DNA from: Patescibacteria group bacterium
GTDB taxonomy: Bacteria; Patescibacteriota; Minisyncoccia; Phycocordibacterales; UBA2163
Direction: 5' to 3'
Length of the DNA: 31,629 nt
Assembly: GCA_038064155.1 (NCBI GenBank)
Contig: JBBTTR010000024.1
Coordinates: forward strand, 1-31,629
The notes beneath the pieces are model-generated. The model was not told the origin of the DNA, ran no database searches, and saw nothing but the letters and a program-made list of their open reading frames with translations. Positions 7,298 through 31,138 of the stretch are shown here, piece after piece (position 1 is the stretch's first letter; every line of letters starts with the position of its first letter). The translations under genes were made by a program, and so were the position numbers.

Positions 7298-7314
7298 TAA
7301 TGATATTTTTTATA

Positions 7315-7341
7315 TCACTTGGAAACTTAGTTTCCAAGTGA
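7315..7341 (+). repeat. Family B REP-like palindrome, copy 1
   Basis: TCACTTGGAAAC-TTA-GTTTCCAAGTGA, just after the truB stop. Confidence 0.95.
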
Positions 7342-7438
7342 GAATAGACAGGCGCTTTTTGGTATAATGCAAGGTAGCATATTTGCGTATACTAATTATT
7401 TCACTCACCAGAAAAGTCCTAAGACTTTTCTGATGTTT

Positions 7439-19630: not shown

Positions 19631-19673
19631 ACATCCTTTCACTTGGAAACTTAGTTTCCAAGTGAAAGGATGT
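19631..19673 (+). repeat. Family B palindrome, copy 2, with arms extended to 20 bp
   Basis: ACATCCTTTCACTTGGAAAC-TTA-GTTTCCAAGTGAAAGGATGT upstream of gyrA. Confidence 0.95.
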
Positions 19674-22522: not shown

Positions 22523-22543
22523 TGTTTAGGTTTGACCTAAACA
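22523..22543 (+). repeat. Family C palindrome upstream of RAYT-1
   Basis: TGTTTAGGT-TTG-ACCTAAACA. Confidence 0.95.
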
Positions 22544-22568
22544 GAATAGAGTTGCTATAATTTAGGTA

Positions 22569-23291
22569 ATGAGGAAAGAACCATTTTTTGTTGGAGATTT
22601 TGTGCATGTTTTTAATCGTGGTAATCGCAAACAAGAAATTGTGCGTGATGAAAAAGATAAATTATATTTTTTACAAGCACTTTATTATTTTAACGACTCC
22701 CATTCAATTTTAAATATTTTTCGTAACTTGAATGACTTGTTTAGGTTTAATTTAAACAAGATGATGTGGCCAGAAGAATTTCCAAAACGTGACCCTTTAG
22801 TAAAAATTCATGCTTTTATTTTAAAAAATAATCATTTTCATCTAATTCTTGAAGAAATTAGAGAAAGTGGTATTTCTGAATTTATGAGAAAATTGAGTAC
22901 AGGAGTGACTTGTCGTTTCAACAAGAAATATGACGAAACAGGTAAATTATTTCAAGGGTCGTATAAAGCTCGTCGGGTTGACAAGGACAATTATTTGCAA
23001 TATCTAAATGTTTATATACATATAAAAAATGCTTTTGAAATGTATGAAGGCGGTATTGAAAATGCAATGAAAAATTTTGATGATGCCTATGAATTCGCGA
23101 AGAAATATCCATACAGTAGCTTGAGTGTGTATGAAGGAATAGAATCATTACTTATAAAGATAATCTCTACAGATTGGTTGATTGAAGCTTTTAATGATAA
23201 TGAGTTTAAAAATTTTTCAAAAGAATGTTTGGAATACTTAGATTTTGATGAAACAACATTGAATGTAATTTTTGAACACTCCTCTGTTTAG
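22569..23291 (+). CDS. HUH/Y1 REP-associated tyrosine transposase-like protein (RAYT-1)
   Basis: HVFNRG (H13-R17), NHFHLIL HUH motif (H89/H91), FNKKY..TGKLFQGSY, catalytic-position Y149 (YIHIKN), YPYSS; flanked by palindromes. Confidence 0.85.
   Translation: MRKEPFFVGDFVHVFNRGNRKQEIVRDEKDKLYFLQALYYFNDSHSILNIFRNLNDLFRFNLNKMMWPEEFPKRDPLVKIHAFILKNNHFHLILEEIRESGISEFMRKLSTGVTCRFNKKYDETGKLFQGSYKARRVDKDNYLQYLNVYIHIKNAFEMYEGGIENAMKNFDDAYEFAKKYPYSSLSVYEGIESLLIKIISTDWLIEAFNDNEFKNFSKECLEYLDFDETTLNVIFEHSSV
22736..22760 (+). repeat. Degenerate family C palindrome inside RAYT-1 CDS
   Basis: CTTGTTTAGGT-TTA-ATTTAAACAAG; 3 substitutions from GTTTAGGTTTGACCTAAAC, the two stem changes leave G.T pairs; encodes LFRFNLNK. 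Confidence 0.75.
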
Positions 23292-23312
23292 TGTTTAGGT
23301 TTGACCTAAACA
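23292..23312 (+). repeat. Family C palindrome immediately after the RAYT-1 stop
   Basis: TGTTTAGGT-TTG-ACCTAAACA; the stop TAG itself lies in a half-site CTGTTTAG (23284-91). Confidence 0.95.
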
Positions 23313-28171: not shown

Positions 28172-30331
28172 CTATTGTGGCCAACTAGCGACGATAAGCG
28201 TTTCGCTATCTTTTTTCGGCAAACTCTGCCATATTTCTTCTGTAATAAACGGAGCAAACGGATGAAGCAGTTTCAGGCATGTTGTAAGTATAGTATATAG
28301 TGTCCATTTTGCCGATTTTTTGTCCACGTCACTGCCATTTTGAAGGACAAGTTTTACTTCTTCAATATATATGTCCGCGAAATTATGCCACACCCAATGA
28401 TATATTTCGTCTGCCGCGAAATCTGGTCTATATCCATCTATATTATCGGATACGGTTTTTGTTATATTATTCAAATTTTTTATCCATTCTTTATCCAAGG
28501 CGCTAAGTTTTGGTTTTTCTTTTATGTTTTTCTCATCAACATTTGAAAGCACGAAGCGTGCAATGTTCCAGATTTTGTTTGAAAAATTTTTGTATCCTCT
28601 TATTTTGTCTTCTGACAAACTTATATCATTACCCGGCGGCGCGCCTACAATAAGAGAAAGGCGCGCCGCGTCCGCTCCATATTTTTCTGTCATATCAAGT
28701 GGGTCAATTATATCCCCGCTACTTTTACTCATCTTCTTTCCTTTTGCGTTTAGCACCATCCCATGTAGATAGACTTTCTTAAACGGCACATCGCCAAGCA
28801 GATATCCTGACATCAAAATCATTCTTGCAACCCAAAAGAAAAGAATATCGTGACCTGTCTCCAACACACTTGTCGGATGAAAATTCTTCATATCATCAGT
28901 ATCCTCAGGCCAGCCGAGAGTGGAGAATGTCCACAGCCCAGAAGAGAACCATGTATCAAGCGTGTCGGGGTCTTGTGTCCACCCATCGTCTTCTGGTGCA
29001 TCCACACCTACATATACTTCCTTGTCTTTATTCCATACAGGTATTCTATGTCCATACCAAATCTGCCTACTTATGTTCCAGTCATTTAATTTATCTATCC
29101 AATGAAAATAAGTTTTATCAAAATGTTTTGGAATAATCTCAATTTGCCCACTCTCTACGGTCTTTCTCATTATTTCTTTGAGGCTCGTTTCGTCGCCATT
29201 TTTTATACCATTTATTTTTGAGTTCTTAAGTTTGAATTTTTTATTTACATCAACAAACCATTGCTCTTTTATCTGCGGTTCAATCACACCTCCACCACGA
29301 TAGTTTGTCGCAAGGTTGAGTGTATAGTTTTCATTTATTTTTGTAACTAATCCTTTTTCTTTTAACTTTTCAACTATCATAGACCGCGCTTTCTTAATAT
29401 GAATTCCCGCAAACTCTTTTGTTATTGGCAATAGTTTTCCATTGAAATCAATTATTTGTTCTGTGTCCAGATTGTGTCTTTTTGCAATTTCAAAGTCAGT
29501 CGCATCATGCCACGGAGTTATAGTCATCACACCTGTTCCAAACTTCATATCTACAGCTTCGTCTTTTATAACAGTTGCAGTGATTGGTCCGTTTATCCAT
29601 TCTAAATCAAGTTTCTGTCCGTGTTCATATTTTTTATATCTTTTATCATCTGGATGCATTACAACATATTTGTCTCCAAATTTTGTTTCAGGACGCGCAG
29701 TACCGATTTCAAAAGGTCCGTACTTAAGATAATAAAACGGTGATTTTTCCTCTTTGCGTTCTATCTCATCATCGGAAACGTTTGATTGCATTTTAGGGTC
29801 CCAGTTTACAATTCTGTTACCGCGATAAATAAGTCCGTTGTCGTACATTCGTTTGAATGCTGTTTTTACAGCTAAACTTCTTTTTTCATCAAGAGTATAA
29901 GTTTCTCTACTCCAGTCAATAGACGCACCCATTTTTTTAATCTGATTAACAATAGTATCGTGGCTTTCTTTCGCAAATTGTTCAACACGCTTTAGAAATT
30001 CTTCACGTCCCAAATCGTGTCGCGTTTTCTTTTCTTTTTTATACAATATTTCTTCAATTTTTGACTGTGTTGCGATTGCCGCATGGTCTGTTCCAGGTAG
30101 CCACAGCGTCTTCTTACCCTTCATCCTGTTATAGCGTACAAGAATATCCTCAATAGCGAGCATTGCCGCGTGTCCCATATGAAGCGTACCTGTCACATTT
30201 GGAGGGGGAAGTATTATAGAGAAAGCTTCTCCTGCGCCTTTAGGCTTGAAAAAACCACCCTCTTCCCAGAGTTTGTAGATTTTACTTTCAGTTTCCTGCG
30301 GATTATATGGTTTTAGGAATTTATCGTCCAT
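28172..30331 (-). CDS. valS: Valine--tRNA ligase lacking the C-terminal coiled-coil arm
   Basis: PPPNVTGTLHMGHA (HIGH), PGTDHAAIATQ, WNISRQIWYGHRIP, KMSKS; ends at SWPQ; start set at MDDKFLKPY because GTG 30385 lies in a palindrome. Confidence 0.95.
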   Translation of the reverse strand: MDDKFLKPYNPQETESKIYKLWEEGGFFKPKGAGEAFSIILPPPNVTGTLHMGHAAMLAIEDILVRYNRMKGKKTLWLPGTDHAAIATQSKIEEILYKKEKKTRHDLGREEFLKRVEQFAKESHDTIVNQIKKMGASIDWSRETYTLDEKRSLAVKTAFKRMYDNGLIYRGNRIVNWDPKMQSNVSDDEIERKEEKSPFYYLKYGPFEIGTARPETKFGDKYVVMHPDDKRYKKYEHGQKLDLEWINGPITATVIKDEAVDMKFGTGVMTITPWHDATDFEIAKRHNLDTEQIIDFNGKLLPITKEFAGIHIKKARSMIVEKLKEKGLVTKINENYTLNLATNYRGGGVIEPQIKEQWFVDVNKKFKLKNSKINGIKNGDETSLKEIMRKTVESGQIEIIPKHFDKTYFHWIDKLNDWNISRQIWYGHRIPVWNKDKEVYVGVDAPEDDGWTQDPDTLDTWFSSGLWTFSTLGWPEDTDDMKNFHPTSVLETGHDILFFWVARMILMSGYLLGDVPFKKVYLHGMVLNAKGKKMSKSSGDIIDPLDMTEKYGADAARLSLIVGAPPGNDISLSEDKIRGYKNFSNKIWNIARFVLSNVDEKNIKEKPKLSALDKEWIKNLNNITKTVSDNIDGYRPDFAADEIYHWVWHNFADIYIEEVKLVLQNGSDVDKKSAKWTLYTILTTCLKLLHPFAPFITEEIWQSLPKKDSETLIVASWPQ

Positions 30332-30378
30332 ATTTAAGATACTTCTTATAATACCAATAATACCAAAATATAATACAC

Positions 30379-30411
30379 AAGTCACTTGGAAACTTAGTTT
30401 CCAAGTGACTT
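30379..30411 (+). repeat. Family B palindrome, copy 3, upstream of RAYT-2 (15-bp arms)
   Basis: AAGTCACTTGGAAAC-TTA-GTTTCCAAGTGACTT. Confidence 0.95.
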
Positions 30412-30432
30412 ATAAAATGATAGAGTTTACTT

Positions 30433-31116
30433 ATGAGAAAAATAAAATTTGTAAAAAAAGAGTTTTATCATATTCTTAATAGAGGTGTAGACAAAAGAAT
30501 AATTTTCCCTGAACAAGATGATATAAACAGATTTTTTCAAAGCATGAAGGAATTTAATGTTATAGAACCAATAGGGAGTATTTATGAAAATTCATTTAAC
30601 AAGAATAAACTTGGAAACTTAGTTTCCAAGTTGGAGGGTGGTAATGATAAACAGGGAAAACTAGTTAACTTCATATGTTACTGTCTTAATCCAAATCATT
30701 ACCATTTTATTCTTGAGCAATTGGTTGAAGACGGTATAGCAAAATTAATGCATAAAATAGGGTTAGGTTATACAAAATATATAAATGAAAAATACAACCG
30801 TTCAGGTTCATTATTTCAAGGAACATTTAAAGCGGTACATATAAATACAAATGCACAGTTATTGCATACCAGTGCTTATGTCAATTTAAATGATGAAGTT
30901 CACCAACTTGGAAACTTAGTTTCCAAGTTGGGAAAATCAAGTTGGAAAGAATACATTAACGAAGATATTAAAGATCCATTTTGTAAGAAAGATATTATTT
31001 TAGGACAATTTAAAAATAAAGCGGATTATAAAAAGTTTGCAGAAGAATCATTAGAATATATTTTAGAAAAAAGATACATAGATGAAAAAGGTGAGAAAGA
31101 GCTATTTCTTGAGTAA
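30433..31116 (+). CDS. HUH/Y1 REP-associated tyrosine transposase-like protein (RAYT-2)
   Basis: YHILNRG, YCLNPNHYHFIL (H89/H91), YINEKY.RSGSLFQGTF, Y149 (YVNLN), SSWKEY; flanked by palindromes. Confidence 0.9.
   Translation: MRKIKFVKKEFYHILNRGVDKRIIFPEQDDINRFFQSMKEFNVIEPIGSIYENSFNKNKLGNLVSKLEGGNDKQGKLVNFICYCLNPNHYHFILEQLVEDGIAKLMHKIGLGYTKYINEKYNRSGSLFQGTFKAVHINTNAQLLHTSAYVNLNDEVHQLGNLVSKLGKSSWKEYINEDIKDPFCKKDIILGQFKNKADYKKFAEESLEYILEKRYIDEKGEKELFLE
30608..30632 (+). repeat. Family B palindrome inside RAYT-2 (codons 59-67)
   Basis: AACTTGGAAAC-TTA-GTTTCCAAGTT, encodes KLGNLVSKL. Confidence 0.97.
30903..30931 (+). repeat. Second family B palindrome inside RAYT-2 (codons 157-167)
   Basis: CCAACTTGGAAAC-TTA-GTTTCCAAGTTGG, encodes QLGNLVSKLG. 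Confidence 0.97.
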
Positions 31117-31138
31117 CTTGGAAACTTAGTTTCCAAGT
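31116..31138 (+). repeat. Family B palindrome overlapping the RAYT-2 stop codon
   Basis: ACTTGGAAAC-TTA-GTTTCCAAGT; first A is the last base of TAA. Confidence 0.97.

Follow-up and report, generated by a model that had tools for sequence, protein, structure and literature searches.

A gene for a RAYT-like Y1/HUH enzyme in a Patescibacteria genome most probably belongs to an ancient REPtron variant, the hairpins of which are kept uniform by copying. On this reading a working enzyme gene would carry its cognate hairpin at four family-ancestral positions: U before the start codon, S1 and S2 in frame within two tolerant linkers of the protein, and D on the stop codon. The layout is old, its hairpin sequence is copied in blocks and the protein is under purifying selection. 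The LGNLVSK peptides encoded by the two inner copies would be passengers of the DNA.

The hairpin is CTTGGAAACTTAGTTTCCAAG, a 21-nt palindrome with 9-bp arms and the loop TTA. Six perfect copies start at positions 7318, 19642, 30385, 30610, 30907 and 31117 of the window, by which we mean the whole stretch of 31,629 nucleotides that was analysed, and none of 100 shuffled versions contained a match. The last four copies lie within 760 bp, all in the + orientation with the loop TTA, in agreement with what the earlier note had reported. The features of the window are as follows.

7318–7338, + strand: dispersed intergenic copy; its 3′ flank, to about 7390, is a roughly 90% copy of tgt coding sequence
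19632–19672 (core 19642–19662), + strand: dispersed intergenic copy; stem of 19 bp through copy-specific flanks
30379–30411 (core 30385–30405), + strand: U, upstream REP hairpin; stem of 15 bp through copy-specific flanks
30433–31116, + strand: RAYT-like Y1/HUH enzyme gene; 227 aa, open reading frame intact
30608–30632 (core 30610–30630), + strand: S1, in-frame copy; codons 60–66, read as LGNLVSK
30697–30705, + strand: HUH motif H89-Y-H91; invariant alignment columns
30877–30879, + strand: putative catalytic Tyr149 (YVNLN helix); invariant, in helix 140–152 of the model
30903–30931 (core 30907–30927), + strand: S2, in-frame copy; codons 159–165, read as LGNLVSK, 13-bp stem
31116–31138, + strand: D, copy overlapping the TAA stop codon (31114–31116)

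As the earlier note had described, both inner copies are in frame, in the same orientation and unmutated. Their extended palindromes (30608–30632 and 30903–30931) span codons 59–67 and 157–167, and S1 and S2 with their flanks have 27 identical bases in common. Folded as single-stranded DNA, U, S1, S2 and D all formed strong hairpins, with energies of −8.9 to −15.2 kcal/mol and z-scores of −5.3 to −7.6. U lies 22 nt 5′ of the ATG, in the intergenic region between the divergent valS and RAYT genes. The mechanically called open reading frame of valS (28172–30385, − strand) extends from a GTG start into the U hairpin; the conserved N terminus of its product (MDDKFLKPYNPQ) suggests a start near 30333, which would leave U within a divergent intergenic region of about 100 bp. 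A promoter and terminator scan was uninformative, with 7 promoter-like sites against 6.7 expected. The source genome (458 kb in 45 contigs, 88% complete), which is contained in runs of groundwater metagenomes, has 18 perfect copies of the palindrome, 14 of them away from the RAYT-like gene; the relatives discussed below are likewise Patescibacteria metagenome-assembled genomes. At C40:17117 of the source genome, the right half of one copy is partly repeated behind it (..CCAAGTGGAGTTTCCAAGTGG), a half-site duplication.

The earlier note had also held that the gene is still functional, with its reading frame and catalytic residues intact, and the comparison with relatives bears this out. The 227-aa frame is open, and H89, H91 and Y149 are invariant in 32 aligned family sequences. 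Against two syntenic orthologues, dN/dS was 0.05–0.10 at dS values of 0.7–2.3, so that relaxed selection, with dN/dS near 1, is rejected. Judged by dN/dS and by the invariance of the HUH motif and the tyrosine, the enzyme gene is functional. Residues 78–151 match the Pfam family PF01797 (Y1_Tnp) with 24.9 bits against a cut-off of 23. The AlphaFold (AF2) model of the protein is of only moderate quality (pLDDT of 63.6); its best Foldseek match was 4ER8, the E. coli TnpA-REP bound to REP (E-value of 2.6e-4, probability 1.00), followed by IS608 TnpA and ISDra2 TnpA. Searching PDB sequences with the family profile gave nothing relevant, and 4ER8 was found by the fold search only. The score against the NCBIfam RAYT equivalog NF047646 was 21.9 bits, below its cut-off of 80, and by this measure the protein is a distant relative of that family, not the proteobacterial equivalog.

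In the AF2 model, residues 48–73, which include S1, and 159–170, which include S2, form low-confidence coil with pLDDT below 50. The S1 peptide is modelled as the linker from helix 1 to the HUH strand and the S2 peptide as the linker following the Tyr helix. The structure prediction that the earlier note had called for thus places both peptides in coil, and, the model being of moderate quality, surface loops are likely at both places. The genome contains five Y1 matches, all of them different genes; a second copy of this gene was not found among them, and no tnpB adjoins it. An ENA contig from the same organism (L098) carries a 99% identical version of the gene (P0001) with one-base changes in A-runs at both ends. 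These changes shift the start and the end of the gene, and valS and tsaD are also split on that contig. We rejected phase variation at the A-runs as the likely cause; the pattern resembles long-read homopolymer errors.

A protein search returned 3293 relatives, 31 of which were aligned. A peptide of the type LG-x-x-x-SK stands at both inner positions of this alignment, and its variable residues agree between the two sites within a protein and differ among proteins. We surveyed the DNA layout in 80 homologous Patescibacteria loci (48–65% identical) together with the window, 81 loci in all. Nearly every locus has its own palindrome, built as ACTT(G/A)G, inner stem, loop of 3–5 nt, inner stem, C(C/T)AAGT, at up to four conserved places: U about 40 nt before the start, S1 near +180 (codon ~60), S2 near +455 (codon ~159) and D at the stop. 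A site was called when its hairpin had a stem of at least 8 bp, so the following counts leave weaker hairpins uncounted, and some U and D copies are missing through contig ends.

U hairpin: 69 of 81 loci
S1 hairpin: 53 of 81 loci
S2 hairpin: 59 of 81 loci
D hairpin: 59 of 81 loci
All four hairpins: 30 of 81 loci
At least one inner copy: 71 of 81 loci

Pairing was also measured free of any hairpin selection, on the 21 nt aligned to codons 60–66 and 159–165 of the query. At S1 and S2 a mean of 8.0 of the 9 stem positions formed Watson–Crick pairs, compared with 2.5 of 9 across 9545 in-frame control windows drawn from these genes, and the inner stem positions 6–9 were occupied by two to four different pair types. 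In a quick maximum-likelihood search, loci with all four sites fell in every major clade, and this picture was unchanged once the hairpin columns were dropped; given the strict hairpin threshold and the quick tree, counts of gains and losses are rough. The four loci that have neither inner copy form one nested clade (SH-aLRT of 100), in which the protein is intact and U and D are kept. The enzyme can thus do without the inner copies. Syntenic orthologues adjoin valS at L094, L097 and L098, and because they and most of the 80 homologues have the same inner sites, the insertion sites are ancestral and only their sequence is young. On the loci compared, the four-site layout is ancestral to the sampled family.

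The sequence held at these sites changes in concert. The outer stem ACTT(G/A)G is common to the family, and the inner stem and loop are genome-specific: the 8-nt inner arm was identical between two sites of one locus in 62–78% of comparisons and between loci in about 2%, and none of 10000 permutations reached the observed value. The change can be followed between the window and two of its close syntenic relatives.

Window: U, S1, S2 and D all GGAAAC-TTA
L094 (83% amino acid identity to the window): U with loop TAA (flipped), S1 with TTA, S2 with TCG, D with TCG
L097 (77% amino acid identity to the window): U GGTAAC-CCC, S1 GGAAAC-TTA, S2 GGTAAC-CCC, D GGTAAC-GGG (flipped)

The variant switch in L097 affects U, S2 and D; both arms and the loop are altered there, and the neighbouring codons are ordinary orthologous sequence. 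Two same-genus loci carry imperfect palindromes. In L115, U and D have one and the same such palindrome and S2 has its reverse complement, mismatches included, and S1 is a decayed GGAAAC-TTA; in L120, one imperfect unit stands at S1, S2 and D and is flipped at U, again mismatches included. Mismatches repeated identically point to copying, since selection for a stem cannot make mismatches identical. Replacement is not uniform, as three relatives in which S1 trails the other sites show. Between the window and its two syntenic orthologues, S1 is identical despite dS values of 0.7–2.3, so its bases are held at the DNA level.

Many stems are lengthened by 4–15 bp of copy-specific flank, as at 19632–19672 and 30379–30411 of the window. 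Further examples occur at C28:18514, C36:3112 and C41:356 of the source genome, at the D sites of L037 and L018 and at S1 of L036. The downstream arm of the L037 D site is an inverted copy of the last codons and stop of the gene, and 13 codons at S1 of L036 form one perfect palindrome. The sequence of these extended stems suggests that one flank was copied onto the other, by a template switch or by snap-back synthesis.

Loop orientation between sites is close to random across the family loci. Among the 21 loci in which a flip would leave the frame free of a new stop codon, S1 and S2 were flipped relative to each other in 10. With TTA, TCA or CTA as the sense loop, none of six loci had them flipped, although 15 of 38 comparisons of inner with outer copies showed a flip. 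A flipped loop would read TAA in the window. This accounts for the common direction of the two inner copies there, and the shared orientation of S1 and S2 is, to judge from these loci, not a conserved design. Loop flips yield complementary middle codons (for example CCC and GGG, encoding P and G), and the stem codons pair by reverse complement as L with K, G with S or T, and N with V. Taken together, the P/G flips and the pairing of L/K, G/S and N/V codons place the constraint on DNA (or RNA) and not on the peptide.

Hairpins of the same kind sit within other genes. Three of the 14 dispersed copies in the source genome are in frame within long open reading frames, where the REP is read in three different frames.

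tgt (PF01702), C26:8836–10056 of the source genome: REP read as LETKFPS
mnmA (tRNA_Me_trans), C42:9601–10692 of the source genome: REP read as WKLSFQ
219-aa open reading frame, C28:21249–21905 of the source genome: REP read as LGNLVSK

At the tgt site of same-genus genomes, the outer stem and flanks are the same and the inner stem differs (GGGTGC-CTT in G010). The tgt copy of G012 is identical to the D copy of one of that genome's RAYT genes, mismatches included, and two same-genus genomes have the site without a hairpin. The orthologous mnmA site likewise combines a single outer stem with four or more inner variants. In G005, where no close RAYT of this subfamily was found, the mnmA hairpin (C5:9809–9829) is a perfect palindrome and the sole copy of its variant in the genome; it is probably the relic of an extinct hairpin family, and it indicates that a hairpin can persist without the system. 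The mnmA gene of G004 holds a decayed form of the G005 variant. Three other genomes have 12–15 palindrome copies each, 3–5 of them at RAYT genes. At 7313–7390 of the window, the stretch of about 50 nt on the 3′ side of the REP copy at 7318 is roughly 90% identical to the tgt coding sequence beside the tgt-embedded REP (C26). The loop is flipped between these two copies, and a hairpin thus seems to have carried its 3′ flank along when it was copied.

Related genes repeat the arrangement with palindromes of their own. A second gene of the same subfamily in the source genome (L102, C3:11366–12046) has its own degenerate hairpin, ACTTAGT..CGAAAC.ACTAAGT, which stands upstream (flipped) and at two in-frame sites, S1 and S2, read as LSNETTK and LSGETTK. 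Four more copies are dispersed elsewhere; a copy downstream of the gene was not seen. RAYT-1 (22524–23311 of the window, open reading frame 22569–23291) is a second Y1 gene, from another subfamily, with the palindrome TGTTTAGGTTTGACCTAAACA 25 nt upstream and just past its stop codon, and a decayed copy at 22737–22761, near codons 57–64. Same-genus genomes of about 0.5 Mb (G006, G008, G009, G010 and G012; loci L115–L126) have 3–7 Y1 or RAYT-like genes each. Several of these, 34–40% identical, carry unrelated private palindromes at U, at +153 to +184 and at D. No gene carries the palindrome of a paralogue from its genome; each has a separate one. An S1-like position seems to be common to genes well beyond this subfamily.

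Four other accounts of the window can be set largely aside. An assembly artefact, which the earlier note had named as a threat to its reading, has a negligible probability: unitigs do break at the S1 repeat, where no single unitig bridges S1 and the pieces overlap by 29–30 nt, but contigs from four runs of four different studies match the stretch with 0 differences and no joints, one contig covers S2 and D with 0 differences, and the same layout recurs in 80 other assemblies. The earlier note had itself proposed a recent or actively maintained self-insertion or gene conversion. Of this, maintenance stands, in that a process of copying or of a conversion-like kind actively keeps the copies identical. 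That a mobile REP recently inserted itself into the gene of its own transposase is highly improbable, because the same sites are present in most of the 80 homologues and in the syntenic orthologues, S1 is identical in relatives though dS reaches 0.7–2.3, and replacement in place explains the identity; this holds even though S1 and S2 share 27 identical bases and the REP does sit in frame in tgt, mnmA and the 219-aa frame of the same genome. We give equally little credence to LG-x-x-x-SK as a selected protein motif from which the dispersed palindromes derive. An LGNxVSK consensus does appear at both sites of the protein alignment, but its residues pair by reverse-complement codons with a middle residue that flips between P and G, the non-coding U, D and intergenic copies have the same sequence, and other genes use other frames (LETKFPS, WKLSFQ). 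Only slightly less remote is a programmed deletion switch, in which the direct repeats S1 and S2, 297 bp apart, would recombine, deleting the HUH motif and the tyrosine in frame and turning the enzyme off. The two sites are indeed perfect 27-nt direct, in-frame repeats around the catalytic core, but the switch is unlikely because direct orientation is not conserved (the 10 of 21 flips given above); the contigs of the four runs also contain no S1–S2 joint, a weak point since contigs drop rare variants.

A more serious competitor, though distinctly less probable than the REPtron variant, is that the inner hairpins are passive passengers without a role: the enzyme would be uninvolved, the linkers that house the copies would accept any peptide, and host processes, namely template switching at quasi-palindromes and short-tract gene conversion, would keep the copies both palindromic and uniform. 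The nested clade that lost both inner copies with its protein intact fits this account, as do the low-confidence coil around both peptides, the orphan mnmA hairpin of G005, perfect with neither a second copy nor a close RAYT, and the stems extended into copy-specific flanks, as template switching would give. Against it, retention of the inner copies is about equal to that of the flanking copies by which a REPtron is defined, every gene has its own palindrome and never that of a same-genome paralogue, and the S1-like private hairpins of distant subfamilies (34–40% identical) would need repeated capture at the same linker.

On the REPtron-variant reading that we prefer, all hairpin sites of a genome with the outer stem ACTT(G/A)G...C(C/T)AAGT take over their inner stem and loop in one block from the variant current in that genome. 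This overwriting, in either orientation, amounts to concerted evolution by copying. We consider it about as likely as not that the enzyme itself drives the replacement by nicking the foot of the hairpin, which holds a CT; that the foot ACTTGG contains CT, like the cleavage sites of E. coli TnpA-REP, is a lead drawn from analogy. It is possible, although we hold it only tentatively, that the copies within and beside the gene have a role in cis, as sites bound by the enzyme itself, which would give autoregulation and keep enzyme and substrate inherited together. A fuller and rather speculative form of these proposals is a "hairpin cassette exchange", in which the enzyme would nick the conserved foot and the inner stem and loop would be recopied from another copy on either strand, driving genome-wide concerted evolution of the substrate, with the copies in the enzyme's own frame as protected master templates and operators. 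If this were true, substrate copies inside essential genes would also evolve in concert, and the copies in the enzyme's own frame would tie its specificity to its substrate through inheritance.

With small genomes and 12–18 copies, four of them at set places of the enzyme gene itself, this RAYT family offers a compact natural system for studying how REPs spread and stay uniform and what RAYTs do. Between close relatives, replacement of the inner hairpin can be traced individually for each site, those at orthologous positions of housekeeping genes among them. In this family a coding sequence has also retained a DNA structure over a long period, and the protein tolerates any peptide that the hairpin of the moment specifies, a point that matters for annotation and for the interpretation of "conserved" peptide motifs.

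We found no description in the literature of RAYTs in Patescibacteria or CPR. For REPs in RAYT genes, the literature search returned overlaps at gene ends only and none inside the coding sequence, and no account was found of concerted replacement of cognate in-frame REPs in a RAYT gene. Published work describes REPs that flank RAYT genes, overlap gene ends or lie inside other genes (PMC2817692; PMC3733652). The closest known systems are the REPtrons, RAYT/TnpA-REP genes flanked by cognate REPs, including E. coli YafM (4ER8) and those of Pseudomonas and Stenotrophomonas (PMC2817692, PMC3479197, PMC8266576). E. coli TnpA-REP cleaves at a CT dinucleotide, and its segment beyond the Tyr helix is an auto-inhibitory tail (PMC3479197). 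The gene described here resembles them in encoding a Y1/HUH enzyme with an HUH motif and one tyrosine and a fold nearest to 4ER8, and in being bracketed by a short palindrome with further copies scattered through the genome, with a separate palindrome for each paralogue. Cognate copies flank it on both sides (U at 30385, D at 31117), and it is a vertically inherited, non-IS gene, one per palindrome family, as the synteny with valS at L094, L097 and L098 indicates. It differs in having two more copies in frame inside the gene, at conserved positions, and in that the conserved part of its palindrome is the outer stem ACTT(G/A)G: a GTAG or CGTC foot was absent from the flanks of the 18 copies in the source genome, where the conserved part is (C/A)ACTTGG. 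Copy number is also low, at 12–18 per 0.5–1.1 Mb, and the protein is far from the NCBIfam equivalog (21.9 versus 80 bits).

Elements of the IS200/IS605 type, such as IS608 and ISDra2 with their TnpA proteins, have the same fold and likewise place the gene between sub-terminal hairpins, which in IS200/IS605 are recognized as single-stranded DNA. The gene here, by contrast, is not multi-copy, is syntenic beside valS in relatives and has no tnpB; its left and right hairpins are the same palindrome, small hairpins and not the gene are dispersed, and the several identical whole-element copies typical of such elements were not found. Correction of quasi-palindromes by template switching is an established mutational mechanism, and it would explain the perfecting of stems, the loop flips and the extension of stems into flanks. 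On its own, however, it leaves unexplained the inner stem shared by distant sites of one genome and the mismatches copied in imperfect palindromes. Intragenic REPs and the Rickettsia palindromic elements (surveyed in PMC3733652) share with this family in-frame, translated palindromes in working genes, often those of nucleic-acid metabolism (here tgt and mnmA). They differ in that the host gene here is that of the element's own presumed enzyme, and in that the sites are conserved family-wide, with the inner stem replaced in place between genomes.
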